From positions 191,508-255,507 of the forward strand of contig DAITMO010000001.1 of assembly GCA_036835125.1 (NCBI GenBank): a DNA stretch of 64,000 nucleotides, read 5' to 3'. This stretch comes from Patescibacteria group bacterium (GTDB taxonomy: Bacteria > Patescibacteriota > Microgenomatia > UBA8517). Position numbers and translations under genes: made by a program. Of the stretch, positions 5,799 through 52,850 are shown one piece after another (the stretch's first letter is position 1; each line of letters opens with the position of its first letter). Under the pieces are notes generated by a model. It did no database searches, was not told the origin of the DNA, and saw nothing but the letters and a program-made list of their open reading frames with translations.

Positions 5799-5978
5799 AT
5801 GCAAGCCTGGCTACTCTCTCAAGGGCGATGTGTTGGTTGTGGTACAGAACTTTCAGAAGGGAAAAAGAAAACTACAAAATATGGTGAGCAAGTTACTTGT
5901 ATAAAGTGTGGAAGAATTTTTATTCATGACCCCAAGACAAATAAATATAGACGTGCTCTTCTTGAAGAAGTTGATTAA
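5799..5978 (+). CDS. Small zinc-ribbon protein (~59 aa, CxxC-x17-CxxC).
   Basis: MQAWLLSQGRCVGCGTELSEGKKKTTKYGEQVTCIKCGRIFIHDPKTNKYRRALLEEVD. Divergent from the orphan gene. Confidence 0.45.
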   Translation: MQAWLLSQGRCVGCGTELSEGKKKTTKYGEQVTCIKCGRIFIHDPKTNKYRRALLEEVD

Positions 5979-5985
5979 TAAAAAA

Positions 5986-18964: not shown

Positions 18965-19061
18965 GTCTTCAATTCAGTATTTGCCTTTTTTCTACAAAAA
19001 GTTTAATTTTAAATTACTAGTGGGAAAAGAACTGCCAAGTAATGGTTTTGTAGATAAGGTA

Positions 19062-19250
19062 ATGGCTTTTGATAGATATTTAGGAGATGACAGTAAAGTG
19101 TCTCTCACAGCTTATTATCTCTATCTAAAACGCCTAAGATTAGGGATATCAGGCTCTGCTGATGAGGATTGGAAAAAGGCTGAAAAATTAGTTGAAGGCC
19201 GAATTGTTAGAAAGTTGAATCAGAAGCTTGCGGAAGCTCGAGCTATTTGA
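19062..19250 (+). CDS. Small hypothetical ORF (62 aa) inside the rpsJ-rplC insert. Coding status uncertain.
   Basis: ATG 19062 with upstream AAGGT. MAFDRYLGDDSKVSLTAYYLYLKRLRLGISGSADEDWKKAEKLVEGRIVRKLNQKLAEARAI. The part of the track ORF upstream of this ATG overlaps rpsJ and was discarded. Confidence 0.3.
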   Translation: MAFDRYLGDDSKVSLTAYYLYLKRLRLGISGSADEDWKKAEKLVEGRIVRKLNQKLAEARAI

Positions 19251-27126: not shown

Positions 27127-27618
27127 ATGGCATACAACAGAGGACAAAGACAAGATTATCAAGGACCTCCAAAAGAGTTTGAGGAAACAGTGGTTCAGAT
27201 AAATAGAATTAGCAAGAAAACAAAAGGTGGAAACCAGATTAGATTCTCAGCTCTTGTTGTCGTTGGAGACAGAAAAGGAAAAGTTGGTGTTGGAATTGCT
27301 AAAGCAACAGACGTTAGAAATGCTATTAGAAAAGCCATAGAAGCAGCAAAAAGAAATCTTGTAATTGTTCCTTTGGTTGGAACAACAATTCCATATTCAG
27401 TTGATCAAAAGTTTTCTGCAGCAAAAATACTATTGAAACCTGCTCCTCCGGGATCTGGTATTATTGCAGGTGGACCTATGAGAGTAGTTTTGGAAGCTGC
27501 AGGAGTTAGGGACGCAGTTGGAAAAATCTTGGGAACAAAGAATAAAATTTCAAATGTTTATGCAACACTAAAAGCCCTTGAAACAATATCAGGAATGGTT
27601 GAGATTAAAAGAAAATAA
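27127..27618 (+). CDS. rpsE: 30S ribosomal protein S5.
   Basis: ...RFSALVVVGDRKGKVGVGIAKATDVRNAIRKA...GSGIIAGGPMRVVLEAAGV... Confidence 0.95.
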   Translation: MAYNRGQRQDYQGPPKEFEETVVQINRISKKTKGGNQIRFSALVVVGDRKGKVGVGIAKATDVRNAIRKAIEAAKRNLVIVPLVGTTIPYSVDQKFSAAKILLKPAPPGSGIIAGGPMRVVLEAAGVRDAVGKILGTKNKISNVYATLKALETISGMVEIKRK

Positions 27619-27644: not shown

Positions 27645-27926
27645 ATGACAAATTTACCTAAAGTAGTAGCAAAAAGTAAAAAGAGAGTTGGACGCGGAAT
27701 GGGTAGTGGCAAAGGATCTCATACTTCTAGTCGTGGACAAAAAGGACAAAAGAGTAGGGGTCACATTGGAGTTCTTTTTGAAGGAATGAAGATGAGAAAG
27801 AGTTTCTTAAAAAGACTTCCTCTTATTCGTGGAAAAGGAAAGTTCCATGCTAAAAAAACCAGACGTGAGAAATATGCTGCTTTCAAAAGTAGGAAAGCTG
27901 CTCCAAAAGATACTGCTAAAAAATAA
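27645..27926 (+). CDS. rplO: 50S ribosomal protein L15, N-terminal portion only (93 aa); the ORF stops right after an A6 run.
   Basis: KRVGRGMGSGKGSHTSSRGQKGQKSRG...KRLPLIRGKGKFHAKK...FKSRKAAP aligns with the L15 N-half (E. coli ...RRLPKFGFTSRKAA...). Stop TAA 27924-27926 immediately follows aaaaaa at 27918-27923. Confidence 0.8.
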   Translation: MTNLPKVVAKSKKRVGRGMGSGKGSHTSSRGQKGQKSRGHIGVLFEGMKMRKSFLKRLPLIRGKGKFHAKKTRREKYAAFKSRKAAPKDTAKK

Positions 27927-27928
27927 GA

Positions 27929-28210
27929 ATGGAACAAGGACTAAAGATTGATCAGAATCCAGACTTTGATCAGTGGAAAGCCGATAATGAAAGACTTACA
28001 TTAGCAGGACTTCAAAATGATGACGACGAAATAATTGATGCAGTAAAAGCTAGATGTATCAGTAGGTTTGGTAAATCTGCTGGTAGTCTATACTTTAGAG
28101 GATTGATAGCAACTTTCCCCGAAAGACACAAAGATCTTTTTCCAGAAATTTATGATCCAGAGACTGGATTAATGCACGGAGAGGTTTTGGATTCGGTTGC
28201 AAATCCTTAA
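27929..28210 (+). CDS. rplO: Probable continuation of rplO in the -1 frame (L15 C-terminal portion, diverged). Otherwise an acidic 93-aa hypothetical protein.
   Basis: Adding one A to the A6 run fuses the frames (...TAKKIRMEQGLKID...). ...ERLTLAGLQ... and ...AVKARCISRFGKSAGS... resemble the L15 C-terminal ...LKAAGLI... and ...VKAHAFSKSA... segments. Similarity is weak. Confidence 0.4.
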   Translation: MEQGLKIDQNPDFDQWKADNERLTLAGLQNDDDEIIDAVKARCISRFGKSAGSLYFRGLIATFPERHKDLFPEIYDPETGLMHGEVLDSVANP

Positions 28211-28247
28211 TTACTTGGTTTAACTCTTCTTATTTTTAGTGTAGGAT

Positions 28248-28595
28248 TTGGTTATGGTTCAAAAGTTTCCCCACAACAAACTCATTCGAGACAATATTCC
28301 TGAAGTAATTGAAAAAGCTGGTGGAAAGTATGAGACAAAAGTTTTAAATGATGATGAACTGGATGTTGAACTTAGGAAAAAGCTTTTAGAAGAAACAAAT
28401 GAAATTTTAGAGTCCTCCGATGAACATTTACCAGAGGAACTTGCAGATGCTCTTGAAGTGATAGAATCGTTAGCTGAAACTCATGGGTTGAAACTCTCAG
28501 ATATTCAAAAGATTCAGGAGGAGAAAAGGGGTAAAAGGGGAGGATTTAAAAAGAAATTGTTTTTAATTTGGTCAACACAACCTTCTGGAAAATAA
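28248..28595 (+). CDS. MazG-like / all-alpha NTP pyrophosphohydrolase family protein (115 aa).
   Basis: FPHNKLIRDNIPEVIEKAGGK...EETNEILESSDEHLPEELADALEVIESLAETHGL...KRGKRGGFKKKLFL matches the small dimeric MazG/PRA-PH-like NTP-PPase signature (KLVRDKIPE...EE[LV]xD[VA]Le...RGGF). Confidence 0.55.
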   Translation: MVMVQKFPHNKLIRDNIPEVIEKAGGKYETKVLNDDELDVELRKKLLEETNEILESSDEHLPEELADALEVIESLAETHGLKLSDIQKIQEEKRGKRGGFKKKLFLIWSTQPSGK

Positions 28596-29053
28596 AATGT
28601 TTATGTAAAAAAAACTTGGGGCTACCAATGATGTTTCAATTTGATAGCCCCAATGTGTTTGTTGTTCGGCTTTTGAAAGCGTTACTTTAGCCGATATTTC
28701 ATGCGCTGTTTCATGAACCAAATTTTGACATCGATTTCCTGATAAGCAGAACGAAACCAATTCGTAATTTGATTGAGTGTGATCCGTAAAAGGATCAGGA
28801 TGGCCTTTAGGCTTGCATTTGCCTTCAGGATTCTTCCCGTCTTGGTCACACCACATCCGTCGGAACACATCAAAAGTGTCCCGTCCGTGCAGAGAGCGGA
28901 ATATCCGGCGGTTTTGAGAACGATTAGGGTTCTCTCATCGTCGGACTCTGGTTCTCCGCAGCCTGGTTTCAAAGTAATTTCATCGCCTTTTTTTAAGTCG
29001 GCAATGATATACGCACCAGGGTCGACCATACTGCCATATCCACAACAACACAT
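28572..29053 (-). pseudogene. Cys-rich HExxH (zinc-metallopeptidase-like) gene split over two overlapping frames; probably a frameshifted remnant. Local GC is clearly higher than the surroundings.
   Basis: Frame A from ATG 29053 has the strong SD AGGAGGTGA and reads MCCCGYGSMVDPGAYIIADLKKGDEITLKPGCGEPESDDERTLIVLKTAGYSALCTDGTLLMCSDGCGV. It degenerates after ~70 aa. Frame B (28868 downwards) reads ...CDQDGKNPEGKCKPKGHPDPF...CLSGNRCQNLVHETAHEISAKV (HExxH). The tail of frame B runs through the 28616-28653 hairpin. Confidence 0.45.
28616..28653. terminator. Inverted repeat TTGGGGCTA / TAGCCCCAA (9-bp stem, 20-nt loop) between the MazG-like gene and the convergent HExxH gene remnant.
   Basis: cttggggctaccaatgatgtttcaatttgatagccccaatg read directly, preceded by aaaaaaaa. 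Confidence 0.4.
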
Positions 29054-29161
29054 AACTCACCTCCTGGAATATTAGAGAACGAAGGCATATTCTACCCTGT
29101 AGTATGAATAATTTCAAGTTTTCTGCATAGTATAAGCATATTATTGTGATAGAATTCAGAT

Positions 29162-29728
29162 ATGTTGGAATTTTTTGGGATAACTTCAGGGATACTTGCG
29201 ATTGTTGCTGTAGTCCCATACATTCGGGATATTCTAAAAAAGACAACAAGACCTGAAAGGGCAAGTTGGCTTATTTGGACAGTGCTTGGTAGTATTGCTT
29301 TCTTTTCTCAACTTGCTAAAGGAGCAACAAACTCTTTATGGATGACAGGGTTAAGTACTCTATGTGTTTTGACTGTGTTTTTACTTTCTTTAAAACATGG
29401 AGAAGGAGGCCTTATAAAAAGAGATATTATAGCTTTAGTCTTTGCTTTTGTTGGTTTGGTATTATGGTTTTTTACAAAAGACGCAACAATTGCTCTTTTA
29501 ATTGTAATTGCAGTTGATTGTTCAGGGTCAATTCTTACAATCACAAAATCATACAAAGATCCTGAAAGTGAAACAATGAGTACTTGGATATTGGCAAGCA
29601 TTTCTGGTTTGTTTGGTACTCTATCGGTTGGTGTATTTAATTGGATTCTTCTTATATACCCACTTTATATTTTGTTTGCAAATTTTGCTGTTACATTGGC
29701 AATTGTATTGGGGAAAAGAGCTAAGTAA
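29162..29728 (+). CDS. Integral membrane protein with ~6 TM helices (188 aa); possibly a small PnuC-like solute or nucleoside transporter, unconfirmed.
   Basis: Six hydrophobic segments (GILAIVAVVPYI, WLIWTVLGSIAFF, LSTLCVLTVFLLSL, IIALVFAFVGLVLWFF, IALLIVIAVD, ILLIYPLYILFANFAVTLAIVL). Confidence 0.5.
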   Translation: MLEFFGITSGILAIVAVVPYIRDILKKTTRPERASWLIWTVLGSIAFFSQLAKGATNSLWMTGLSTLCVLTVFLLSLKHGEGGLIKRDIIALVFAFVGLVLWFFTKDATIALLIVIAVDCSGSILTITKSYKDPESETMSTWILASISGLFGTLSVGVFNWILLIYPLYILFANFAVTLAIVLGKRAK

Positions 29729-29780
29729 CAATTTTTATTCAATAAAATTTTTTAGAGTTTGATTGTGTTAAACTCCAATT

Positions 29781-30182
29781 ATGAAAAAGAAAGTATACCT
29801 TGCAGGACAATCTAATGAGTATGAGAAAAACTGGAAAGAAAAGTTTAAAAAGATTTCAGGATTTGATTTCTATGATTGGGAATTTGATTCTGACCAAAGT
29901 TCTCCTGATACATATTTCCCTGAAGATTTAACTGGAATTAAAAATACAAAATATATGGTTGCAAATCCTGGGGTTGCACCTTCTGAAGGAACATGGATAG
30001 AGATTGGATATTTCTATGCTATGAATACTAAAAAGCCTGGAGACTTTTGTAATAAATTAATAATTATTTGGAAGAAAGACAGAAAGCCTGTTTGGTCAAT
30101 AGATTTTGTTAAAAAAACTGGGTATGTGGTTTCTTCCATTCCTGCTGCAATTAAAAAATTAAGGGAGATTTCTGGACAGTGA
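29781..30182 (+). CDS. Nucleoside 2-deoxyribosyltransferase-like (NDT / Rcl-like Rossmann) protein (133 aa).
   Basis: N-terminal KVYLAGQ and the block PSEGTWIEIGYFYAM match the NDT-family KIYLAGP and D-x-G-T-x-x-E-x-G-[YF]-A catalytic-Glu signature. Confidence 0.5.
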   Translation: MKKKVYLAGQSNEYEKNWKEKFKKISGFDFYDWEFDSDQSSPDTYFPEDLTGIKNTKYMVANPGVAPSEGTWIEIGYFYAMNTKKPGDFCNKLIIIWKKDRKPVWSIDFVKKTGYVVSSIPAAIKKLREISGQ

Positions 30183-30206
30183 CATATGTTGTGATACAAT
30201 TCGGCT

Positions 30207-30770
30207 ATGGTAGAAACGAATGTTTTTGAAGGTAGACTTGCCACACTTACAAAAGTTTTAAAAGAGATTCCCGAAGTTAAATATATAGGTGACCCTATTT
30301 TAAGAATAGAAACAGAAGAGGCAACTTTGGAGGAAGGAGTCGAAATTGGGGAAAAACTTGGTAAAGTTCTTCTGAAATACAGAGAAATTGCAGGATATGG
30401 CAGAGGGTTTGCCGCTCCTCAAATTGGAATTGGAAAATCTGTTTTTACAACATTTGTTGATGACAAGATTCAGATTTTTATCAATCCTAAAATTACTAAA
30501 ACTTCTGAAACAAAAAATTACTACAAAGAACTCTGTCTTAGTTCTGGAATATTATCGGCAGACGTTGCACGGCCTGAATGGATAGAAATGGAATGGATGG
30601 ATATGGAAGGTAAAATGCATAAAGAAAGATTCGATGGGTTTTTGGCAAGACTCTATCAACATGAAGAGGGACACCTTAGAGGAATTGTTAATATAGATAT
30701 CTGTGAAGATGAAGGTTTGGAAATTTGTACGTTTGATCCACTTAAAGAAACATTAAGGTCTTCAAGATAG
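30207..30770 (+). CDS. def: Peptide deformylase.
   Basis: All three PDF motifs: GRGFAAPQIGIG (motif I), ELCLSSG (EGCLS-like), QHEEGHLRG (HExxH). Confidence 0.75.
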   Translation: MVETNVFEGRLATLTKVLKEIPEVKYIGDPILRIETEEATLEEGVEIGEKLGKVLLKYREIAGYGRGFAAPQIGIGKSVFTTFVDDKIQIFINPKITKTSETKNYYKELCLSSGILSADVARPEWIEMEWMDMEGKMHKERFDGFLARLYQHEEGHLRGIVNIDICEDEGLEICTFDPLKETLRSSR

Positions 30771-30811
30771 AAATTGCTACATTCGAAATTTGGTTTTCAA
30801 GATGATAGTAT

Positions 30812-31495
30812 ATGAGAATGGATACAAAAACACATTGGGACAAAAGTCATCAAAAACATCCTGATAAAAGGGAACCTTCAAATTATGCTATAGATAAAGA
30901 AAGATCTTTTCCGAGGAGTTCTATGGTTTGCGACTTGGGTGGAGGAGATGGTGCGGATAGTTTATATTTTCTAAAACAGGGGCATAATGTTTTCCACTGT
31001 GATATTTCTCCAATTGCTGTAGAAAAAGCTAGAAGAAAAACTGATGAGGCAGGATTTTCAAAAAACTTTTCAACGGCTGTTGTTGATTTGAATAAAGACA
31101 AGATTCCAAAATCTGACAACTTTTTTGATATTGTTTATTCAAGACTCTCCTTACATTATTTTGATCAAGACAGAACAAGAGAGATATTGGCAGATGTTAA
31201 AAGAGTTTTGAAACCTGGAGGGGTAGCATTTATTGCAGTTAAATCACCTGATGACAAAAATGAAATGGAGTTCTTAGAAAAAAATAATGAAAAAATTGCA
31301 GAAGGACTTTACAGAGAAGATTCGGTATTGAAGTCCAGGTACACAAAACAACAATATGAAACTATTTTGAAGAATGCTGGTGTTGATAATTATGAAATAA
31401 ATGATTATGAGGAGACTTTTGGAGAGAGTAAAATATATGTAAAGTCTGGTGCAGACAAACTTCTTTATTTGGAAATAACAATCCACAAGATTTGA
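30812..31495 (+). CDS. Class I SAM-dependent methyltransferase.
   Basis: Motif I VCDLGGGDGADS; post-II VLKPGGVAFIAV. Confidence 0.7.
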   Translation: MRMDTKTHWDKSHQKHPDKREPSNYAIDKERSFPRSSMVCDLGGGDGADSLYFLKQGHNVFHCDISPIAVEKARRKTDEAGFSKNFSTAVVDLNKDKIPKSDNFFDIVYSRLSLHYFDQDRTREILADVKRVLKPGGVAFIAVKSPDDKNEMEFLEKNNEKIAEGLYREDSVLKSRYTKQQYETILKNAGVDNYEINDYEETFGESKIYVKSGADKLLYLEITIHKI

Positions 31496-31528
31496 CACTT
31501 TCGAAATCGTTGGTGATATCATGTTTAT

Positions 31529-32170
31529 ATGACTACTTTTAAAGGAGTAGTAAAAGCAAGAATAATTGATGCTCGTTTTGCAACTTCAGGAAAGGTTAGT
31601 GTTGTTAAAAAGTTTACAGGAGATACTGTTAAGAAGGGAGATTTATTGTCTTCTTTAGAAAGAAAGACTGCTCAGGCTACACTTGATAGGGAGCTTGCCG
31701 ATTTTGAAAGGGTAAGGGCAGACTTTGAAATATTTAATCAGAAGAATCCAAATCCTACAGAGGCAATAGATAAATATTTAAAAACAGAAAAACAGGCAAC
31801 ACTAAATGCTGCTGTTAAAAGTGTGGAAATGGCAAAGGCTGGGGTGGACGCTTGTGATCTATTTTCTCCAGTGGATGGAATAGTAATAGATGATAGTAGT
31901 GTTGTGGCAGGATTAAATATTACTCCTGCTAGTTCTCCTTTTAAAATAATTGATACCAGTTCCTATTTTGTTGAAGTAGAAATTGGGGAGAAAGATATTA
32001 AAAATTTTAAAGAAGAAAAAGAGGTAAAAGTAAAAATAACAAGTTTGGGAATAGAACTAAAGGGAAAGATGGGAAAGGTACAGAGTGATGGGAAAAGGTT
32101 GTGTGTAAAAATTAAGACATCGGATTCTCTAGACGCCCCAGTGGGACTAAGTGTAACGATCAAATTTTAA
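31529..32170 (+). CDS. Biotin-lipoyl-like / HlyD-like barrel-sandwich domain protein with no cognate pump nearby.
   Basis: GKVSVVKKFTGDTVKKGDLLSSLE (lipoyl-like hairpin), a coiled-coil segment, then beta-rich C-terminus. No signal peptide or TM. Confidence 0.4.
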   Translation: MTTFKGVVKARIIDARFATSGKVSVVKKFTGDTVKKGDLLSSLERKTAQATLDRELADFERVRADFEIFNQKNPNPTEAIDKYLKTEKQATLNAAVKSVEMAKAGVDACDLFSPVDGIVIDDSSVVAGLNITPASSPFKIIDTSSYFVEVEIGEKDIKNFKEEKEVKVKITSLGIELKGKMGKVQSDGKRLCVKIKTSDSLDAPVGLSVTIKF

Positions 32171-32173
32171 GAA

Positions 32174-32566
32174 TCACCGCCCTTGTGTTTCGGGTTGTTT
32201 GGACTCAAATACATACCCTTCATGAATTTTGTAACCATTAACTTGAGTATTCTCTAGTTTTACATTAGACCCGTCTTGCACCCTTATACTCGCAGTTATT
32301 AATTGAACCAAATGTTCGTCTGGTTGAAATATTCCCAGTCTGGCTATTGTTGATATTTCTTCAGAGTTTAAATTCTTTTTTATTATTCCAGCAACGTAAT
32401 CAAAACTTTCTCTTGGATTATCTCTTGAAATCCATGGTGCTGAGGCAATAACAGACCACTTGTCTATATATTCATCCATTTTGAGAACCATAAAAAGATA
32501 AAAGTCACCTTTGTCACTTTTTATTTCATTAAAAATATTTCTAAATTTGTCGATTAAATTTTCCAT
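32174..32566 (-). CDS. Hypothetical protein (130 aa), translationally coupled downstream of the HEPN gene; candidate cognate partner.
   Basis: Its ATG (32566-32564) lies 1 nt after the upstream gene's last base. MENLIDKFRNIFNEIKSDKGDFYLFMVLKMDEY... has no recognised motif. Confidence 0.45.
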   Translation of the reverse strand: MENLIDKFRNIFNEIKSDKGDFYLFMVLKMDEYIDKWSVIASAPWISRDNPRESFDYVAGIIKKNLNSEEISTIARLGIFQPDEHLVQLITASIRVQDGSNVKLENTQVNGYKIHEGYVFESKQPETQGR

Positions 32567-32567
32567 A

Positions 32568-32990
32568 TCACCATTTATGTTTGACCCACTCTAAAAATCC
32601 ACTTGTCTTGTCTTCAAGGGCAGCAAATTTGTCTTGGATTGCCGTTGCTGTATATATATTCATATTATATCTTATTTCAGGTTTCCAATCCTTTGTTAAT
32701 ACAGACCAGCTATTAAAAAGACTAGGGTTTTTAACAAGGTCTATCTCTGTTGAATAACCAGAAAGTAGTAACAACCTATCAAACTCATGGGTTGCGAAAA
32801 CGTTTTGAAACTTTCCAGTGTCTGGGTATTCGTTGATTCGTAATTTACGACAAATTACAGCTTTTAATGAACACTCAACAACATAACCCAATAGGTATCC
32901 GGCGGTATCGTTGTCACCGGCTTGAAACAATATTTTAGCAGCTTTTAACTTGGCTTTTGCAGCTGTCTTAAGACTCGTTCGATTTAACAC
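32568..32990 (-). CDS. HEPN-domain protein (140 aa; predicted RNase-type toxin or abortive-infection module).
   Basis: AKAKLKAAKILFQAGDNDTAGYLLGYVVECSLKAVICRKL ... FATHEFDRLLLLSGY ... matches the HEPN layout (helix with E-K-x-LKA, then T-H-[DE]-[LF]-x-x-L). Apparent GTG start with no SD. Confidence 0.5.
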   Translation of the reverse strand: MLNRTSLKTAAKAKLKAAKILFQAGDNDTAGYLLGYVVECSLKAVICRKLRINEYPDTGKFQNVFATHEFDRLLLLSGYSTEIDLVKNPSLFNSWSVLTKDWKPEIRYNMNIYTATAIQDKFAALEDKTSGFLEWVKHKW

Positions 32991-33073
32991 AGTAATGCAA
33001 TTATATAACTATTGTAAAGATAATGTTTATAAAAGTTGGTATCCACAAACACTTACTGTGATACTATGAATAT

Positions 33074-33772
33074 ATGGCCAAATCTTCAAAGAAAAGTAAC
33101 AAGGTTAAAAAATTTAAAACATCTAAACTTTCTTTTAAAAAAGCTGTAGTTGCTATTGGTGCTATTGGGATAATTGCAGGAAGTGTTCCTGTTGTTAAAA
33201 GGGTTATTGATCCGAGTGAATTGGTTACTGAAGTGATTGATGGGGATACGTTTAGGATTGGGAATAGACAAACTATTAGATTCTATTCTGTTGATGCTCC
33301 TGAGCTTGGTAATTGTTATGGGGAGGAGGCAAAAGAAGCATTAACTAAAAAGATATTGGGTAAAAAGGTAATAATAAAATCTCCTAGAACTGATTACTAC
33401 AAAAGAGTACAAGCATATGTGTATGTAGATGGGGAATTTGTAAACGAATATATGGTTAAAAATGGGTTTGCGATGGAACATGGGGAGGGAACACCTGAAA
33501 CAGATATTGTTAAAGAGGCTAATACTTTTGCAAAAGAAAATAAGTTGGGAATATATTCTGAGAAGTGTTCTCCCTTAGTTTCTGAAAATAAAAACTGTGT
33601 AATAAAAGGACAGATTCCATATGATTATGGTCCCGAAAAGAAAGTATATTTACTACCAGGGTGTCGGAATTATGAACAAACAAAGGTTGAGAGATTCCGT
33701 GGGGAAGATTGGTTCTGTAGTGAGAAGGAAGCAAAAGATGTAGGCTTCACTAAATATGAATACTGTCCATAA
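33074..33772 (+). CDS. Membrane-anchored thermonuclease (SNase-like) with a C-terminal Cys-rich extension.
   Basis: N-terminal TM AVVAIGAIGIIAGSV. SNase core VIDGDTFRIGNRQTIRFYSVDAPE ... EYMVKNGFA. C-terminus carries six Cys (CSPLV...NCVIKG...PGCRNY...WFCSEKE...YEYCP). Confidence 0.75.
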   Translation: MAKSSKKSNKVKKFKTSKLSFKKAVVAIGAIGIIAGSVPVVKRVIDPSELVTEVIDGDTFRIGNRQTIRFYSVDAPELGNCYGEEAKEALTKKILGKKVIIKSPRTDYYKRVQAYVYVDGEFVNEYMVKNGFAMEHGEGTPETDIVKEANTFAKENKLGIYSEKCSPLVSENKNCVIKGQIPYDYGPEKKVYLLPGCRNYEQTKVERFRGEDWFCSEKEAKDVGFTKYEYCP

Positions 33773-33808
33773 GTTTGCTTCTTATTTTTTTGATATACTA
33801 AAGGTCAT

Positions 33809-34411
33809 ATGAAAACACAAGTTGTTGTAATCCATGGTGGGGATGCTTTTGAGAAATATGAAGATTATTTAGAAAACCTTCAGACAAAAGAAGTTTCTTT
33901 AGAGAAAGTTCGTTCAATTGGATGGAAAGCAAATTTAGGAAAAGATCTTGGTGAAGATTTTGATGTGTTACTTCTCAAAATGCCCAATGGACAAAATGCT
34001 CGTTATAATGAATGGAAAATATGGTTTGAAAGATTTATTCCACTTTTTAATGAGGAGATTATATTAGTTGGGCATTCTCTTGGCGCAATCTTTTTAATTA
34101 AATATTTTTCAGAAAATGTTTATCCAAAGAAAATAAAAGCTACTATTTTGGTTGGGGCTCCATATAATACTTTGGAATTTCATCCGCTTGTAGATTTTAC
34201 AATTACAACACCACTTAATGGTTTTATTAAACAATCAGGAGAAACTGTTTTCTATCATAGTAAAGATGACAAAAATGTTCCTTTTGAAAACATGGAAAGA
34301 TACAAAGAAAAACTACCAAATGCAGTTTTTAATGTTTTTGAAGATAGAGGACATTTTAATGATGAATCTTTTCCTGAGATTGTTGAATTGATTAAAACGT
34401 TTGCTTCTTAA
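33809..34411 (+). CDS. Alpha/beta serine hydrolase (YdeN/RBBP9-like esterase family).
   Basis: GHSLG nucleophile elbow (LVGHSLGAIF). ~200 aa with downstream D and H (EDRGHF). Confidence 0.65.
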   Translation: MKTQVVVIHGGDAFEKYEDYLENLQTKEVSLEKVRSIGWKANLGKDLGEDFDVLLLKMPNGQNARYNEWKIWFERFIPLFNEEIILVGHSLGAIFLIKYFSENVYPKKIKATILVGAPYNTLEFHPLVDFTITTPLNGFIKQSGETVFYHSKDDKNVPFENMERYKEKLPNAVFNVFEDRGHFNDESFPEIVELIKTFAS

Positions 34412-34435
34412 ATATTTTTAAATTAGAATTGGGAT

Positions 34436-35089
34436 ATGAAATTACTTTTAACATCAGCAGGACTTTCAAACAAAACAATTTCAAAAGCACTAGAAAAGTT
34501 GGTTGGAAAACCTGCAAATAAAACAAAGATTGTTTTTGTTCCAACAGCTGCAAATGTTGAAGATGGTATTAAAGATTGGCTTATAAAAGATTTATGTAAT
34601 CTCCAAAATCTGGGGTTTGCGATAGATATTGTTGATATTTCTGCTGTTGATAAAAATGTGTGGTTACCAAGAATAAAAACAGCTGATGTAATTTTCTTTG
34701 GTGGTGGAAATACTTTTTATTTAATGTCTTGGCTTAGAAAAAGTGGATTGGACGAAGTTTTACCAGAACTTTTAAAAACAAGAGTTTATGTAGGAATAAG
34801 TGCAGGAAGTATGGTGGCAACCAAAAATTTGAGAATGAGTACTTCACAGAAATCTTATGCAGAAAAAGTCTTTCCTCTTAAGAATGATAAAGGTCTTGGT
34901 TTTGTAGACTTTCATGTAAGACCCCATCTTAATTCAAAATATTTTCCAAAGCTACGTACTAAGTTTATTAAAGAAATTGCTAAAGATATTCCAGAACCAG
35001 TTTATGCAATAGATGACAATACAGCAATTGTTATAGATGGTAAAAATATAAATGTTATTTCAGAGGGAAAATGGGTTAGATTTAGTTAA
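34436..35089 (+). CDS. Peptidase E / S51-family (class I glutamine-amidotransferase-like) dipeptidase.
   Basis: FFGGGNTFYLM and GISAGSMV are the S51 signature blocks. Confidence 0.7.
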   Translation: MKLLLTSAGLSNKTISKALEKLVGKPANKTKIVFVPTAANVEDGIKDWLIKDLCNLQNLGFAIDIVDISAVDKNVWLPRIKTADVIFFGGGNTFYLMSWLRKSGLDEVLPELLKTRVYVGISAGSMVATKNLRMSTSQKSYAEKVFPLKNDKGLGFVDFHVRPHLNSKYFPKLRTKFIKEIAKDIPEPVYAIDDNTAIVIDGKNINVISEGKWVRFS

Positions 35090-35416
35090 ATGAGTAAACT
35101 AAAAATAGTTGTATTTGTTCCAAAAACACATACGGATATTGTGAGAAAGACTATTGGTGATGCTGGTGGTGGAATTATTGGAAATTACAACTATTGTAGT
35201 TATTCAGTAGATGGTGTTGGAAGATTTATTCCAGCTGATGGGGCAAATCCTACAATTGGGGAAGTTGGAAAACCTGAGGAAGTTGTTGAGGAAAGAATTG
35301 AATTTGTTTGTGACAGGGAAAAGGCAAAAGAAGTTATTCTTGCCATGAAGAAAGTACATCCATATGAAGAAGTTGCTTTTGATATTTATCCTCTGATTTC
35401 TGAAGACGAATTATAA
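35090..35416 (+). CDS. Small PII/CutA-like fold protein (108 aa); function unknown.
   Basis: C-terminal ...KKVHPYEEVAFDIYPL resembles the CutA ...HPYE.PE...LPI ending. Weak. Confidence 0.3.
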   Translation: MSKLKIVVFVPKTHTDIVRKTIGDAGGGIIGNYNYCSYSVDGVGRFIPADGANPTIGEVGKPEEVVEERIEFVCDREKAKEVILAMKKVHPYEEVAFDIYPLISEDEL

Positions 35417-35836
35417 ATGGAAGAATTTATTAGAAGTGTTGCGATAGTTGTTTTTACTGATGATAAAGATGTTGTTGTCCAGGAAAGAGGAGCAGTTTCC
35501 AAGGTTGGAGAAAAATATGGATTTTGGGGAGGGAAAATAGAGGTTGGCGAGACTCCAGAAGAAACTATTAAAAGGGAAATAAAGGAAGAAATGGGTTTTG
35601 AATTAAAAAATTTCTCTTATTTAGGCAGTTTTCCATATGAAGTAAAAGAGGAGTGTCAATGGAAAGGTGGAAAAATTAATCAGGAAGTTTTTATTTCTCC
35701 AATTAGTGAAATTCCTAAAGATGTAAAAATATCTGAAGGAAAAGGACTTATGAAAATGCCGATTGAGGAAGTCAGGAAAGGTATTGGTTTCCCTATTGGC
35801 AGTACTTACTTTATTGAACCAATTAAGTTTGTCTGA
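35417..35836 (+). CDS. NUDIX hydrolase.
   Basis: Nudix box GGKIEVGETPEETIKREIKEEMG (GX5EX7REUXEEXGU). Confidence 0.75.
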   Translation: MEEFIRSVAIVVFTDDKDVVVQERGAVSKVGEKYGFWGGKIEVGETPEETIKREIKEEMGFELKNFSYLGSFPYEVKEECQWKGGKINQEVFISPISEIPKDVKISEGKGLMKMPIEEVRKGIGFPIGSTYFIEPIKFV

Positions 35837-35843
35837 TTTATAC

Positions 35844-36476
35844 TCAGGATTGATTTAATAACTCTTTAATTCTTGGAATTGCTTTTTGGAGGGCTTTTTC
35901 TCTGTGGTTTAGTTTTTCTCCTTTTTCCTCAGCCTTTAGATGATGTTGTTCTCCTAAAAGCATATTCCATTCTGTTACAAAAAATAATGATTCAAAGGGA
36001 AAGCCATCAACTCTTATGTTACTTGGTTTTTCTAAAATTATACCTCTAAGAATTCCATCGAAAGTTTCTATTGTTCCATTAGGTTGTCCAAGAGCTAAGA
36101 CTGTTCTAAATTGTGCCCCTCTTTTTTCCAATGGAATACCTTTCATCTTTTCCAAACAATAATCAATAATCTCCTGGTCAGTCATTTTTGTTTTTCCATT
36201 TCTCCACCTTCTAACATGGATTCCAGGTTCTCCTCCTAAAGCATCAATCTCAAGTCCCGTATCATCAGCCAAAATCAGTTTATTATCAATGGCTTCCCAA
36301 AAACCTTCTACTTTTAAGGTGGCGTTTTCTTCTAATGTTTTTCCTGTTTCAGGAATATCTAGTTCTATACCTAAATCTTTTGGGCAGAAAACTTTTACTC
36401 CATTGAAATTAAGTAGTTTGGAAATTTCAATTACTTTTCCTGGGTTATTCGTGGCATACAAAAGCTCTTTTGACAT
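35844..36476 (-). CDS. rdgB: Non-canonical purine NTP pyrophosphatase (dITP/XTP-ase, Ham1/RdgB).
   Basis: LLYATNNPGKVIEI..., ...ADDTGLEIDALGGEPGIHVRRW..., ...FESLFFV... are the RdgB signature blocks. Confidence 0.85.
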   Translation of the reverse strand: MSKELLYATNNPGKVIEISKLLNFNGVKVFCPKDLGIELDIPETGKTLEENATLKVEGFWEAIDNKLILADDTGLEIDALGGEPGIHVRRWRNGKTKMTDQEIIDYCLEKMKGIPLEKRGAQFRTVLALGQPNGTIETFDGILRGIILEKPSNIRVDGFPFESLFFVTEWNMLLGEQHHLKAEEKGEKLNHREKALQKAIPRIKELLNQS

Positions 36477-36526
36477 AAGGCGACATTAACATTAATAATC
36501 ATTGTTTTCAATGATATACTCCAATT

Positions 36527-37105
36527 ATGGATAAAGTTGATCAGGATATTGAAGCAAGAATCAAAATAGGAGAAATGAAAAAAGTTGAAGAAATATTAGA
36601 CACAACTCCATATTTAGGTTCCAGCCCATCTAAAGAATATAAATCTATAATATTCGGGAATACAGGTTTTCAAATCCGTTTTGACTCTGAGGGAAATACG
36701 TTTGACTTTATGCCAGAAGGCAAGGATCATATAAAGACGAACGATCCAGCATCGGAAAACAATCGATCAAAATATGCATCTATTTTAGGATCATCATTGT
36801 TTGGACTACATGTGTTATTAAATGATCAGAAAAAACTGTTGGAATTCGGAATAGACGGTTCAAGAATAACTAGTGTTTATGCACTTACAAACGAAAGACT
36901 TATAGATGCTGTTGTTAATTTATTTTCTCGTAGTAACATACCTGATTTGGCTACCAGTAATCCTGAGAAAACTTTTGTAAACATCAATCTCCAAGGCTTT
37001 AAGGAACTTGAAGAAGAGGACTCTCTGATTAAATACTTGAAACGACTTTCGGAAAGGACGAAAGATACAACTGTTACCTATGACAAGTTTGTTCGATGGA
37101 GATAG
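36527..37105 (+). CDS. Hypothetical protein (192 aa).
   Basis: Clean ORF with no recognised motif. Last gene of the accessory block before secY. Confidence 0.4.
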   Translation: MDKVDQDIEARIKIGEMKKVEEILDTTPYLGSSPSKEYKSIIFGNTGFQIRFDSEGNTFDFMPEGKDHIKTNDPASENNRSKYASILGSSLFGLHVLLNDQKKLLEFGIDGSRITSVYALTNERLIDAVVNLFSRSNIPDLATSNPEKTFVNINLQGFKELEEEDSLIKYLKRLSERTKDTTVTYDKFVRWR

Positions 37106-37162
37106 CTGAATATTAATTAAAACTATTTTTAGCCTCCAATTTGGGTTATAATCCATTTATCA

Positions 37163-38449
37163 ATGCTTAAAAACATTACACAGTTTTTTATTAGGGCCTG
37201 GAAAACTCCATCTGTCAGGAAAAAGCTTATTATCACAGGTATCATTCTTGTGGTTTTTAGGCTTGCTGCTCACATTCCTGCAGCTGGTATTGATAGAACA
37301 ACCTTGCAAGCATTGTTTTTAGGAAGTCCACTTTTATCTTTGCTTGATGTGTTTTCAGGTGGAACTATGGCTAATTTTTCTATTCTTGCACTGGGCCTTA
37401 ATCCATACATTAATGCTTCTATCGTTTTCCAACTTTTAGGGTATGTAGTTCCTTCAATTGGAGAACTTCAAAAGGAGGGAGAATATGGCCAAGAGAAGTT
37501 GAATCAGTATACACGTCTTTTGACTATTCCTTTAGCTGCAGTACAAGCATTTGGGATGTATGCCCTTCTTAAGGGGCAGAATGTTATAACAAGTCTTTCA
37601 CCTATGGCTATAGTAACACTGGTGATTACAATGACGGCAGGTACTATTTTTGCAGTGTGGTTGGGAGAGCTAATTACAGAATATGGATTCAAACAAGGAG
37701 TTTCCATTCTTATTTTTACAGGAATTATTGCAAGACTTCCTGTAATTTTTCAGCAATCAGCTAGCATTTTCCAAAGTCAGGATATTTTTAAGATTATTAT
37801 TCTTTTGGTAGCAATAGTTTTGATTATTGGTGCAGTTGTCTTTGTTGGTGAGGCAACTCGGAATATTCCAATTCATTATGCAAAAAGAAGAACTGAATCA
37901 GGTCTTGCCGCATCCTCATATTTACCTTTGAGGTTAAATCAAGCAGGAGTCATCCCAATAATCTTTGCGGTTTCTTTAGTTCTCATGCCTTCTATGATTG
38001 GACAGTTTTTAAGTGGGGTAGGCAATGAAAAAATAGCATCAATCGCAAGTAGTATTGCGACAAATTTCAATTCCCAAACAGTTCTTTATAATGTCATTTA
38101 CTTTTTCCTTGTTTTTGGGTTTACATATTTTTATACAGCAGTTGTATTTAATCCTGAAAAGATTTCTGAAGATTTACAAAAAGGAGGAGGTTTTATTCCA
38201 GGTATAAGGCCAGGAAAGGAAACAGAGAAGTATCTCTCCCACGTTCTTTCAAGAATAACTGTGGTTGGAGGGGCTTTTTTGGGTCTTGTTGCAGTAATGC
38301 CGTCCCTGTTTACTAATTTTGTTGGATCTTCCAATATGGCAATTGGAGGAACAAGTATTCTGATTGTTGTGTCTGTTGTCTTGGAAGTAATTAGAGAGAT
38401 GGAAGGCGAACTTGTAATGGAGAGGTATGACAGATTCATTAGGAATTAA
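37163..38449 (+). CDS. secY: Preprotein translocase subunit SecY.
   Basis: 10-TM profile; ...LGLNPYINASIVFQLL... Confidence 0.95.
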   Translation: MLKNITQFFIRAWKTPSVRKKLIITGIILVVFRLAAHIPAAGIDRTTLQALFLGSPLLSLLDVFSGGTMANFSILALGLNPYINASIVFQLLGYVVPSIGELQKEGEYGQEKLNQYTRLLTIPLAAVQAFGMYALLKGQNVITSLSPMAIVTLVITMTAGTIFAVWLGELITEYGFKQGVSILIFTGIIARLPVIFQQSASIFQSQDIFKIIILLVAIVLIIGAVVFVGEATRNIPIHYAKRRTESGLAASSYLPLRLNQAGVIPIIFAVSLVLMPSMIGQFLSGVGNEKIASIASSIATNFNSQTVLYNVIYFFLVFGFTYFYTAVVFNPEKISEDLQKGGGFIPGIRPGKETEKYLSHVLSRITVVGGAFLGLVAVMPSLFTNFVGSSNMAIGGTSILIVVSVVLEVIREMEGELVMERYDRFIRN

Positions 38450-44086: not shown

Positions 44087-44127
44087 ACTTCTTTTTTGTG
44101 TTAAAATACGCTCAGGTCGGAAAATCT

Positions 44128-44201
44128 CGGGGTGTAGTTCACCGGTAGAATAGGCGCATGGGGTGCGTCTGAACTGAGTTCAATTCTCAGCACCCCGACC
44201 A
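44128..44201 (+). tRNA. tRNA-Pro (anticodon GGG), CCA encoded.
   Basis: Hand-folded cloverleaf: acceptor CGGGGTG/CACCCCG (7 bp, C1:G72 as in bacterial tRNA-Pro), D stem GTTC/GAAT, anticodon stem GGCGC/GCGTC with loop AT-GGG-GT, 4-nt variable loop, T arm CTGAG-TTCAATT-CTCAG, discriminator A, CCA. Confidence 0.75.
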
Positions 44202-52501: not shown

Positions 52502-52530
52502 AAAAAATCCCGCAATTGCGGGATTTTTGT
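52502..52530 (-). terminator. Rho-independent terminator (perfect palindrome TCCCGCAATTGCGGGA flanked by A/T runs) immediately 3' of rnpB; bidirectional in form.
   Basis: caaaaaatcccgcaattgcgggatttttg read directly. Confidence 0.6.
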
Positions 52531-52850
52531 ACTCTGGAGATTAGTAAGCCAGGTTCTGTTTCTCGATAACCATCCATCTAAGCCCTCGAACCTTTGGACT
52601 CGGGAAAGCATCCTCAAGCGTCCATTTCGGAGGTTGCAGTTGATAAGGGTTGCCGCTTTTCACTCGTTTTTTTCTACCTTTAGGGTAAAAAAATCGACAT
52701 AGTCTCTGTGGTCCTATCTGGCCTATAAATTAAACTTGCGTTTTTTCTATAGTCTCTGATTTTCATCAGATATCATGCTTTCTACTGCCTGGACTTTCCT
52801 CCCACATCTTTTTTAGAGATAGGGCGATTATCCTTTCTCCAGAGTGAGGC
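52529..52850 (-). ncRNA. rnpB: RNase P RNA (bacterial type, reduced, ~320 nt) on the minus strand.
   Basis: Minus-strand reading contains GGGAGGAAAGTCCAGGC (P4 5' strand; consensus GAGGAAAGTCCGGGC) ~45 nt from the 5' end and ACAGAACCTGGCTTA (P4 3' strand; consensus ACAGAACCCGGCTTA) near the 3' end. 5' ACTCTGGAGA and 3' TCTCCAGAGT pair as P1. Terminator follows. Local GC is higher than the surroundings. Confidence 0.65.

Follow-up and report, generated by a model that had tools for sequence, protein, structure and literature searches.

The rplO-secY junction of the ribosomal-protein operon is normally unbroken, and the locus described here raises the question of how a block of 9,236 bp came to occupy it. 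In the 64,000-nt window (the whole stretch of DNA analysed), the interval from rplO to secY (27927-37162) contains 17 ORFs, 13 on the plus and four on the minus strand (m123, p130, HEPN140 and Ham1), and is ~93% coding, in agreement with the first-pass annotation, which had counted about 17 genes in ~9 kb on both strands. On the 3′ side of secY, adk, map and infA follow in the usual order. The borders are formed by the following features:

27127-27618: S5
27645..27926, plus strand: rplO (uL15), 93 aa, truncated; 5′ border of the putative hotspot discussed below
37123..37152, plus strand: secY promoter-like element CTATTTTTAGCCTCCAATTTGGGTTATAAT, with the -10 box 10 nt before the ATG; 3′ border of the putative hotspot
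37163..38449, plus strand: secY (Pfam SecY, E = 3e-105)

The truncated uL15 retains the N-terminal rRNA-binding extension and lacks the C-terminal globular domain, the alignment ending after about residue 72; it has no Pfam match, and the missing domain was not found elsewhere in the window. Hundreds of uL15 homologs measure 80-97 aa, beside forms of 135-152 aa.

The genome being metagenome-derived, an assembly or binning artefact could have placed unrelated DNA between rplO and secY by a chimeric join. Such a chimera, a concern of the first-pass annotation, is excluded: contigs of two pipelines (Logan and ENA), assembled from six or more samples, show the identical gene order, and a single 26.7-kb contig covers both junctions. 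The locus is also carried by a 778-kb NCBI contig, and homologous inserts occupy the same site in related species, so that an artefact retains almost no probability.

The junction was compared in 79 related species, comprising 49 distant Woesebacteria/Microgenomates (SecY identity <73%) and 30 genomes of the window's subclade (individual relatives are given L numbers). The gap does not extend beyond about 120 bp in 47 of the 49 distant species and is longer than 500 bp (0.5-10.1 kb) in 22 of the 30 subclade genomes, the 9.2 kb and 17 genes of the window being one of the largest inserts. In the SecY tree the insert-bearing genomes form one clade, with basal members in which rplO overlaps secY. 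At the other 13 junctions between L5 and rpoA no gap above 400 bp occurs in the close clade, except at secY-adk (4/30) and in one infA-S13 case (408 bp). In other words, the earlier description of a variable accessory block in an unusual place stands, the two genes being adjacent in the distant relatives and the content of the gap varying among the close ones. The alternative that it had set against an insertion, namely an arrangement typical of the lineage, is true of the break itself; yet the gene set is not fixed.

From rplO up to the HEPN module treated further below, the block carries:

27929..28210, plus strand: o93, acidic 93-aa ORF starting 2 nt past the rplO stop
28248..28595, plus strand: candidate MazG-like all-alpha NTP pyrophosphohydrolase, 113-115 aa (Pfam MazG-like, E = 0.007, sub-threshold)
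28607..28653, minus strand: predicted intrinsic terminator, hairpin 28616-28653 and U8 tract 28607-28614; predicted end of the m123 transcript
28682..29053, minus strand: m123, Cys-rich gene of 123 aa (MCCCGYG...), intact, located within a GC-rich patch
29162..29728, plus strand: memb188, multi-pass membrane protein; predicted leaderless-type promoter TGTGATAGAAT + 6 nt + ATG
29781..30182, plus strand: NDT-like (nucleoside 2-deoxyribosyltransferase-like) protein, 133 aa (Pfam Nuc_deoxyrib_tr, E = 2.7e-4, sub-threshold); predicted leaderless-type promoter
30207..30770, plus strand: def, peptide deformylase (Pfam Pep_deformylase, E = 3e-29); predicted leaderless-type promoter
30812..31495, plus strand: class I SAM-dependent methyltransferase, 227 aa (Pfam Methyltransf_25, E = 1e-18)
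31529..32170, plus strand: short HlyD/membrane-fusion-like barrel-sandwich protein, 213 aa (Pfam HlyD_D23, E = 1e-9); predicted leaderless-type promoter

The first ORF, o93, is probably transcribed by read-through from the spc transcript; gene calls of independent assemblies include it, and it has no match in Pfam, NCBIfam or PADLOC and no homolog in any related locus. Searches of the PDB matched the MazG-like candidate to MazZ (E = 0.36) and the NDT-like protein to CMP N-glycosidase (E = 0.006). The def translation shows the motifs GFAAPQ, CLS and QHEEGH, and every NCBIfam adaptor match of the HlyD-like protein lies far under its cut-off. The MazG-like gene has homologs in the L011, L026 and L092 gaps and memb188 in the L022 and L023 gaps, while orthologs of the HlyD-like gene are present in L007 (78% identity) and L016.

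The minus-strand gene m123 had been taken for a higher-GC, frameshifted HExxH remnant. It proves instead to be an intact gene of 123 aa, with its own Shine-Dalgarno sequence (a canonical AGGAGG, which its neighbours do not have), a promoter-like site at 29117-29089, a terminator and a single other homolog, of 127 aa, which is 47% identical and aligns along its whole length (100%). No Rfam match was found in its region, and the gene is probably of foreign origin. The internal terminator noted earlier appears real, its minus-strand hairpin reaching -21.6 kcal/mol (z = -5.3); a weaker plus-strand hairpin (-18.9 kcal/mol, z = -2.4) lies 3′ of the MazG-like gene. The GC-deviant patch is likewise real, but merely about 350 bp long (28750-29100, 44-54% GC).

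On the other side of the HEPN module the block continues as follows:

33074..33772, plus strand: membrane-anchored staphylococcal-nuclease-like protein (SNase; Pfam SNase, E = 7e-18), N-terminal hydrophobic anchor; predicted leaderless-type promoter
33809..34411, plus strand: alpha/beta serine hydrolase, 200 aa (Pfam Ser_hydrolase, E = 2.6e-9)
34436..35836, plus strand: three-gene unit S51 / NIF3-insert / Nudix, 0-nt spacing
34436-35089, plus strand: peptidase S51 (Pfam Peptidase_S51, E = 3e-36)
35090-35416, plus strand: NIF3-insert/PII-like domain protein (PDB 2gx8 residues 162-264, E = 2.7e-32)
35417-35836, plus strand: Nudix hydrolase (Pfam NUDIX, E = 7e-15)
35844..36476, minus strand: Ham1/RdgB non-canonical purine NTP pyrophosphatase (Pfam Ham1p_like, E = 8e-39); predicted leaderless-type promoter
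36527..37105, plus strand: u192, last cargo gene ahead of secY; predicted promoter TGATATACT + CCAATT + ATG

Here the protein previously labelled CutA-like is a stand-alone NIF3-insert (PII-like) domain. Most other labels hold (def, SAM methyltransferase, HlyD-like, SNase, Ser_hydrolase, S51, NUDIX and rdgB), whereas MazG-like, NDT-like and HEPN reach sub-threshold matches only (E = 0.007, 3e-4 and 2e-4). SNase, found in six gaps, is among the most widespread cargo families. The serine hydrolase is 81% identical to its L007 ortholog, and L026 holds a further homolog; the Ham1 ortholog of the L092 gap, at 73% identity, is likewise encoded on the minus strand. The searches run returned no family match for u192, which has homologs in L007 (36%), L092 (42%) and L088.

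The gaps hold 119 ORFs in total, 73 of which fall in 24 families common to several genomes, in varying order, and 46 of which are singletons. The recurrent pool includes Nudix, SNase, MazG-like, GNAT and hydrolase genes and, now and then, a defence gene, and the content differs between nearly all close relatives. Seven genes are nevertheless collinear in the window and L007, namely HlyD-like, SNase, Ser hydrolase, S51, NIF3-insert, Nudix (these last three keeping the order of the trio) and u192. Six of the seven are 62-86% identical (SecY 82%), u192 only 36%. Because of this shared order and the mostly core-like identities, the block is largely inherited. MazG-like, Ham1, u192 and Nudix are common to the window and L092. 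Cargo loss is directly evidenced in L010, which keeps the last ~43 nt of an SNase gene that is intact in L009; deletion is the only type of event directly documented.

A different origin, that of a recent genomic or defence island, a mobile element integrated between rplO and secY, was implied by the first-pass annotation, which spoke of an island that had invaded or been captured. The use of both strands, the 350-bp patch holding m123 with its foreign-looking Shine-Dalgarno sequence and terminator, the portable HEPN pair and the defence genes of the relatives at this junction would fit this origin. The tetranucleotide composition of the block, however, is native and cannot be told apart from that of the remaining window sequence (z between -1.2 and +0.7); Pfam searches of the block proteins and 46 cargo representatives found no integrase, transposase or recombinase domain; the borders show no flanking direct, inverted or att repeats and no tRNA; and the cargo is mostly metabolic. 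Together with the synteny of the seven genes, six at core-like identity, and the PADLOC result given below, this evidence argues strongly against a recent island, which is very unlikely. The block is not a foreign island of recent date, nor is its arrangement fixed in the lineage; it is probably one of the states taken by a gene-flux hotspot, specific to the lineage, at rplO/secY in a subclade of the tiny, uncultured Candidatus Woesebacteria (Microgenomates, CPR).

The defence question turns on two minus-strand genes:

32174..32566, minus strand: p130, HEPN partner with alpha/beta fold, translationally coupled to the HEPN gene with 1-nt spacing
32568..32990, minus strand: HEPN140, HEPN-domain protein of 140 aa, first gene of the two-gene module; promoter-like site 33029-33000

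Together they are a rare portable two-gene module. HEPN140 itself matches Pfam HEPN below threshold (E = 2.3e-4), all four members of its family match (best E = 3.2e-6), and the family has invariant E39, H68, D71 and R107 and lacks the Rx4-6H motif. Among all 17 block proteins PADLOC gave candidate or generic matches only, namely PDC-M28A (HEPN140, E = 2e-7), PDC-S07 and a partial mad2 match of the methyltransferase confined to its MTase domain, and it found no complete known defence system in the block. The slot between the HlyD-like and SNase genes is occupied by the HEPN pair in the window versus an OLD nuclease in L007, and may be a site at which a candidate toxin/defence pair is placed here and the nuclease in the relative; defence genes at the same junction in relatives encode TIR proteins, an OLD nuclease or an EcoO109I-type restriction-modification pair. 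As to the proposed defence-type island with a candidate toxin module, the HEPN pair is a genuine portable module, but the defence character is weak overall, given the generic PADLOC matches, the absent Rx4-6H motif and a cargo made mostly of nucleotide enzymes and small hydrolases.

The cargo genes are strongly enriched for a signature, TGnTAnnnT (an extended -10 box) placed exactly 6 nt ahead of the start codon, a geometry that suggests leaderless transcription. In the window it precedes seven of the 17 block genes (memb188, NDT-like, def, HlyD-like, SNase, Ham1 and u192) and 4/66 genes elsewhere (p = 9e-4). In the relatives, with ORFs called by a naive longest-ORF rule, it precedes 37/112 gap ORFs vs 10/625 ORFs located outside the gaps of these loci (odds ratio 30, p = 3e-24). 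Of 44 instances, 36 have a spacer of exactly 6 nt. SNase homologs elsewhere (L027, L032) keep the same promoter. The enrichment may in part reflect the monocistronic nature of the cargo; a control with ordinary genes >7.5 kb downstream of secY (5/89, vs 37/112, p = 1e-6) argues against this, the control being small (89 ORFs). Promoters, leaderless starts and the terminator are predicted from sequence geometry and conservation alone. A -10 box so close to the ATG (6 nt) would place the transcription start on the A of the start codon; therefore a -35 box, a leader and a Shine-Dalgarno sequence would not be needed, and the gene with about 20 bp would be portable. The partial transcriptional insulation proposed earlier seems understated, since the majority of the genes seem to form leaderless transcription units of their own.

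The 3′ border offers a possible reason for the opening of the junction. TATAAT is invariant in 26/26 aligned genomes, 8-14 nt ahead of the secY ATG, and the secY transcript, as far as the position of this -10 box indicates, would be near-leaderless. The motif, which occurs once in the window, is present in every break-bearing genome checked (29, one of them outside the subclade, and including L008, L035, L100 and L101); the basal genomes L030 and L031 lack it. Its 5′ half (CTGTTTTTAGGATC) is unlike a -35 box. The same 30-nt motif stands ahead of adk in two genomes with a secY-adk split, and it is 28/30 identical between distant genomes, two facts that a plain promoter does not fully explain.

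According to the hotspot model, secY would have gained its own promoter at the base of the subclade, uncoupling secY-adk-map-infA from the spc transcript. The junction would then tolerate insertions, small genes, between 0 and about 10 kb in all, being gained, lost and reshuffled, most of them as self-contained expression units. The first likely unit is rplO-o93-MazG-like, which would stop at the hairpin around 28.6 kb. The others are memb188, NDT-like, HlyD-like, SNase, Ser hydrolase and u192 as plus-strand single genes; def, possibly with the methyltransferase attached; S51-NIF3 insert-Nudix; m123, HEPN140-p130 and Ham1 on the minus strand; and secY onwards.

Another possibility is that nucleotide sanitation and salvage genes were selected beside adk and the translation genes for co-location or co-expression, the present variability being secondary decay of a large ancestral cluster. 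Nucleotide families do predominate in the recurrent cargo (Nudix in at least nine gaps, SNase in six, MazG-like in four, with Ham1, NDT-like, cytidine deaminase, DHH, HD, CYTH and NTP_transf_6 in addition), adk lies directly 3′ of secY, 70% of the cargo ORFs are co-oriented with the operon, and loss is documented. However, the 46 singletons among 119 cargo ORFs have unrelated functions (GNAT, APH, Erm/KsgA-like, TPR, GDSL, defence genes), cargo order is not conserved across genomes, eight clade genomes have no cargo left, and most cargo genes have predicted promoters of their own, so that co-transcription with the operon would not be required. We therefore regard selected extension of the operon as rather unlikely.

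Under the gene-flux hotspot, judging from annotations of which several are sub-threshold, the cargo would mainly serve the cleaning and scavenging of the nucleotide pool, together with assorted hydrolases and modifying enzymes. Such nucleotide-cleaning cargo would suit an organism presumed to subsist on salvaged nucleotides.

The str-S10-spc-alpha super-operon lies on the plus strand of the window, running from rpoB, rpoC, fusA and tuf to the genes S10 through S5, and on the 3' side of the block it continues with the normal series secY-adk-map-infA-S13-S11-S4-rpoA-L17. The first-pass annotation had reported that rplO and secY are separated by about 9.2 kb and some 17 genes, and measurement bears this out: the block spans 9,236 bp, is ~93% coding and contains 17 ORFs, 13 on the plus and 4 on the minus strand. 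Its landmarks are the following.

end at 27618, plus strand: S5 gene
27645-27926, plus strand: rplO, encoding uL15
27927-37162, both strands: the block
28682-29053, minus strand: m123, a 123-aa ORF (gene ~50% GC) within the GC-rich patch
28750-29100: GC-rich patch, 44-54% GC vs a background of ~34%
37123-37152: conserved element before secY, its single occurrence in the window
start at 37163, plus strand: secY (SecY, Pfam E = 3e-105)

In the canonical spc operon (rplN ... rpsE-rpmD-rplO-secY), secY is co-transcribed after rplO. The window resembles this arrangement in that the other adjacencies from L5 to rpoA are intact, with gaps of few bases. It departs from it in the 9.2 kb between rplO and secY, in a promoter-like element belonging to secY itself, in a hairpin terminator ~0.7 kb downstream of rplO and in an rplO devoid of its C-terminal domain. 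A misjoin does not account for the separation: the contigs that two pipelines gave for at least six samples all have the same genes following rplO, so that the assembly is sound. Moreover, both junctions are covered by a single 26.7-kb contig, and the exact uL15 protein is found on 14 contigs.

To place the block in an evolutionary context, a SecY-based scan with one genome per GTDB species was used, which returned 80 loci (handles L007, L092 and so forth), all from Woesebacteria or other Microgenomates. The close clade (n = 30) comprises loci with at least 74% SecY identity plus five loci fetched via uL15. In the distant species (SecY <73% identity), rplO and secY overlap or are at most ~120 bp apart in 47 of 49 genomes, the exceptions being L035, with a 314-bp gap, and L073, with a 2-kb insertion of an EcoO109I-type restriction-modification system. 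In this last genome, a distant member of the Woesebacteria, the endonuclease and a MerR-fused C5 DNA methylase occupy 7953-9948 between rplO and secY. In the subclade of the window, the interval exceeds 500 bp in 22 of 30 genomes and extends from 0.5 to 10.1 kb (10.1 kb in L007/L013, 9.2 kb in this window, 7.6 kb in L026, 5.8 kb in L020, 4.8 kb in L015, 4.6 kb in L025, 4.5 kb in L092, 4.2 kb in L034, 4.1 kb in L011, and 0.5 kb in the smallest case); in the remaining eight it measures at most ~135 bp. The SecY tree unites the insert-bearing genomes in one clade, whose basal members L030 and L031 still have rplO overlapping secY.

Within the ~20 kb around secY that were examined, turnover is concentrated at rplO-secY relative to the neighbouring intervals. 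Specifically, the L15-SecY interval is longer than 400 bp in 19 of 26 clade loci, and of the 13 remaining junctions between L5 and rpoA none reaches this size in the close clade, barring secY-adk (4/30 close, 8/49 distant) and infA-S13 (single cases of ~410 bp, 408 bp in the close clade). The distant set adds one adk-map and one map-infA case. The secY-adk split, of 0.4-2.5 kb, is found in 12 of the 79 genomes, in both the close and the distant group (L016, L027, L028, L036, L055, L061, L065, L067, L073, L081, L084, L085).

Other variable traits of the operon were also recorded. The interval between rpsJ (S10) and rplC (L3) holds small unannotated ORFs of 74-129 aa in several genomes (19020-19250 in the window, 1293-1517 in L100, 710-1466 in L101), none of which has a Pfam match, which hints at a further, smaller permissive site within the S10 operon. 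The infA-rpsM spacer carries short tandem repeats ~100 nt upstream of rpsM (S13) in L034, L029 and L040 (for example, CTCTAAG in L034 and GGAAACT in L040), and in other genomes it is taken by an rpmJ-like coding sequence. With regard to uL15, its C-terminal domain was sought by tblastn elsewhere and in o93, an ORF of the block, and was not found. Proteins of 82-95 aa without the C-terminal globular domain are encoded in the window and in L007, L012, L019, L030, L034, L066-L068, L090, L092, L100 and L101. Short and full-length forms are interleaved within the clade (L019 is short, L009 and L010 long), which implies several losses, or recombination adjoining the variable interval. Both a uL15 devoid of its C-terminus in some CPR bacteria and the lack of uL30 in CPR bacteria, likewise absent from the operon here, are already known (PMC9297842).

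As to the genes of the block, family searches back the labels def, SAM methyltransferase, HlyD-like (a short, barrel-sandwich protein), SNase (membrane-anchored), serine hydrolase, peptidase S51, Nudix and Ham1/RdgB. The labels MazG-like, nucleoside-deoxyribosyltransferase-like (NDT-like) and HEPN find sub-threshold matches only, and PDB sequence searches with the MazG-like and NDT-like proteins and with u192 gave weak matches or none. The supposed CutA-like protein is instead a free-standing PII-like insert domain of NIF3 (PDB 2gx8, E = 3e-32). For a further ORF of the window, at 5908-6933, the look-up returned no record.

Across the clade, the gaps contain 119 ORFs of at least 60 aa, 73 of which fall into 24 families present in two or more genomes, in varying orders and combinations, and 46 of which are singletons. 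Recurrent cargo includes Nudix, SNase and Ser hydrolase enzymes, GNAT acetyltransferases, a TPR membrane protein, TrpR-like regulators, MazG-like, memb188 and HlyD-like proteins, the NIF3-insert domain, APH kinases, Erm/KsgA-like methylases, cytidine deaminase and NTP_transf_6. The closest relatives of the window are L092, L090 and L007, at ~80% identity of concatenated core proteins; the neighbour-joining tree of these proteins misplaced loci with missing data and was used for pairwise identities only. Seven genes are common to the window and L007 in the same order (HlyD-like 78% identical, SNase 67%, Ser hydrolase 81%, S51 62%, NIF3-insert 83%, Nudix 86%, u192 36%), the core yardstick being 82% for SecY and 75% for adk. 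The window and L092 have in common the MazG-like gene, Ham1 (73%), u192 and Nudix, and the L090 gap contains one GNAT gene and one unknown gene only. The slot between HlyD-like and SNase is filled by the HEPN pair in the window and by an OLD nuclease plus an unknown gene in L007. Loss of cargo is directly evidenced by L010, whose 135-bp gap keeps the final ~43 nt of an SNase gene of which the close relative L009 has an intact copy: a clean deletion scar. The remnant lies upstream of the secY promoter motif (9886-9928 in L010, corresponding to 9911-9953 in L009).

The block had been interpreted as an accessory or defence-type island invading the ribosomal super-operon, a view that is only partly right, as both the marks of a mobile element and an enrichment in defence genes are lacking. 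No integrase, recombinase or transposase was detected by Pfam among the 17 block proteins and 46 cargo representatives, and no long direct or inverted (att-like) repeats bracket 27.9 and 37.2 kb. Nor is there a tRNA target at the block borders; the sole tRNA of the window, tRNA-Pro(GGG), lies at 44128-44201 on the plus strand, with a -10-like TTTGTGTTAAAAT box on its 5' side at 44095-44107. The tetranucleotide distance of the block (z from -1.2 to +0.7) is like that of the rest of the window, and of the compositional deviation formerly noted only the 350-bp m123 patch stands, by its GC content. Given this native composition and the lack of bracketing repeats, the block is native DNA in which genes have been gained, lost and reshuffled locally, rather than a fresh insertion. 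Defence-type genes are scarce, at ~7 of ~130 cargo ORFs: L007 has the OLD nuclease (PADLOC Old, E = 3e-47), L022 and L023 encode TIR proteins, and to these are added a weak PIN match and the HEPN pair of the window. With all 17 block proteins, PADLOC found no complete known system, the matches being PDC-M28A (candidate), PDC-S07 (generic Nudix), mad2 (partial) and SNase (generic) only. The locus is like a defence island in that the same junction in relatives holds an OLD nuclease, TIR-domain proteins or a restriction-modification pair and that one slot alternates between the HEPN pair and the OLD nuclease. It is unlike one in that defence genes are a small minority and no complete system is found by PADLOC in the window.

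The HEPN pair, HEPN140 and p130, deserves separate treatment. PF05168 matches HEPN140 and its three homologs (4/4; best E = 3.2e-6), HEPN140 itself at E = 2.3e-4 and 21.8 bits, the cut-off being 22; with the PADLOC candidate PDC-M28A its E-value is 2e-7. The p130 family is extremely rare, with about 7 members in the database, and in both L094/L095 and L096/L097 the p130 homolog comes immediately after a HEPN-like gene, in unrelated neighbourhoods. The pair is a portable two-gene module, plausibly of the toxin-antitoxin or defence type. It resembles HEPN-MNT type II/VII toxin-antitoxin systems in the tight coupling of a small HEPN protein to a small alpha/beta partner and in recurring as a unit in unrelated contexts. 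It is unlike them in that the HEPN gene comes first, the family is extremely rare, the Rx4-6H motif is absent (R107 is invariant in the four homologs, with no His 4-6 residues after it) and in p130 neither the G[SG]...DxD nucleotidyltransferase signature nor any sequence-level family match was found. PDB profile searches with the alignments of both partners returned nothing, and the single-sequence AF2 model of HEPN140 (pLDDT 46) is too poor for use. Membership of HEPN-MNT is not demonstrable.

The gene m123, in turn, had been taken for a frameshifted HExxH remnant. In fact, its 123-aa frame can be aligned over 100% of the length, at 47% identity, with a 127-aa protein, the only homolog that a collection of 5.8 billion proteins yielded; the HExxH string, which lies in the other frame, is thus incidental. 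The product is Cys-rich, with the N-terminus MCCCGYG. The gene comes with an AGGAGG Shine-Dalgarno sequence, a promoter-like site is located at 29117-29089, and the coding sequence is followed by a terminator with a strong hairpin and U8 (-21.6 kcal/mol, z = -5.3). It alone among the block genes has a classical leader with a Shine-Dalgarno sequence, which fits a foreign origin. A structured RNA was also considered for the GC-rich patch. Folding z-scores are high on both strands, a signal attributed to the terminator and the GC content, and no Rfam family matched the patch at a permissive threshold.

Every clade genome with the break, even with a gap of 65 bp, carries a conserved element immediately 5' of secY, with the consensus CTGTTTTTAGGATCnnnTTTGGGATATAAT followed by 8-14 nt and the ATG. 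The 5' half of this 30-bp element, CTGTTTTTAGGATC, is unlike a -35 box, in contrast to the nearby rpoA promoter with its ordinary TTGAAA-17-TATAAT layout; the TATAAT hexamer is invariant in all 26 aligned genomes. The element is also present in L008, L100 and L101 and absent from L030 and L031. In L016 and L073, where secY and adk are split, an element of this type (30 nt) precedes adk, the L073 copy being identical to the secY copy of the window at 28 of 30 positions. Outside the clade, L035 too has it 5' of secY; that L035 received its insert from the clade was considered and rejected, since only a ~45-bp motif is common to both. Nor does the motif behave as a general promoter, as a position weight matrix gave no other site in the window. 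Its 13-nt core is as frequent as expected by chance, a scan of a viral contig collection returned no match, and the sole metagenome match is unrelated. We infer from the sequence that the element is a dedicated promoter giving a near-leaderless transcript, which would uncouple secY-adk-map-infA from the spc transcript.

The cargo genes appear to carry start signals of their own. In seven block genes (memb188, NDT-like, def, HlyD-like, SNase, Ham1 and u192), TGnTAnnnT is followed by exactly 6 nt and the ATG, so that the -10 hexamer occupies positions -12 to -7 counted from the A of the ATG, a geometry that would correspond to leaderless transcription from the predicted starts. The motif precedes 7 of 17 block genes vs 4 of 66 in the rest of the window (Fisher p = 9e-4). 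Among relatives, it is found at 37 of 112 gap ORFs vs 10 of 625 non-gap ORFs of the same loci (odds ratio 30, p = 3e-24) and vs 5 of 89 ORFs more than 7.5 kb downstream of secY (p = 1e-6), the chance rate being 0.75% at any NTG triplet. A 6-nt spacer separates the box from the start codon in 36 of 44 instances, with tttTTtTGaTAtAaT-tCAatT-ATG as the consensus. Block genes devoid of the motif include o93 and the MazG-like gene, directly after rplO and probably read through from it, NIF3-insert and Nudix, with 0-nt spacing after S51, p130, 1 nt after HEPN140, and m123 with its classical Shine-Dalgarno sequence. SNase homologs located elsewhere in L027 and L032 retain the same promoter, so that the gene and ~20 bp would act as a portable expression unit. 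All these transcription signals are computational predictions. The same motif and spacing also precede fusA (15176) and rpsH (25762), inside big operons, so that internal leaderless starts may exist in ribosomal operons as well. Two divergent genes, at 52885-53604 (minus strand) and 53709-54152, likewise have it; in their vicinity, 52529-52843 on the minus strand matches bacterial RNase P class A RNA (108.9 bits, just over the gathering score of 100).

Taken together, the best-supported reading of the block is that of a clade-specific gene-flux hotspot, licensed by a putative promoter. Many gene-flux hotspots between core genes carry no recognisable mobile element (Oliveira, Touchon, Cury & Rocha 2017, PMC5635113), and the locus resembles these in that one interval concentrates gain and loss, turnover is rapid and a mobile element is absent. 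It differs from them in lying inside the S10-spc-alpha super-operon, in the predicted dedicated promoter of the downstream essential gene and in a cargo of largely leaderless (as predicted), self-promoting single genes; these are the features that would be new. Literature searches turned up no earlier account of a hotspot at rplO-secY or of leaderless cassettes in CPR bacteria, and a paper on the Leptospira S10-spc-alpha locus only confirms its strong conservation.

A bolder proposal, which we consider unlikely, is that the interval is a dedicated integrase-free array. Its unit would be a ~20-bp leaderless promoter fused to one ORF, moving between this site, other loci and other genomes via recombination at the conserved promoter junctions, with the 30-bp secY element as a portable 'exit promoter' licensing insertion beside an essential gene. 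Like integron cassette arrays, the block consists of small, compact single-gene units, mostly co-oriented, whose composition varies between relatives. Unlike integrons, it has no IntI integrase (Pfam, block and cargo representatives), it has no attC sites, its spacers of 0-108 nt being free of recurrent imperfect palindromes, and each unit has its own predicted promoter instead of a common Pc. If true, such an array would represent an undescribed means by which ultra-small genomes maintain a pool of flexible genes within the most conserved of their operons.

The S10-spc-alpha cluster is a textbook case of frozen gene order, in which the rplO-secY adjacency is usually deemed fixed, and its genes serve as a phylogenetic marker set in CPR genome binning. 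Contigs that are broken or odd after rplO in these lineages are not necessarily misassemblies. To our knowledge, no transcription signals have been mapped in Woesebacteria, and a literature search found none; the hotspot reading provides a testable promoter and leaderless-start consensus for the group. In addition, the rplO-secY interval offers a quick metagenome read-out of the variable genes of these reduced genomes, namely genes for the scavenging and cleaning of nucleotides, genes for resistance-like enzymes and the occasional defence module. One junction, once opened, became the local gene-exchange site for a whole subclade, and even the S10-spc-alpha operon would be splittable once the downstream essential gene has a promoter of its own.
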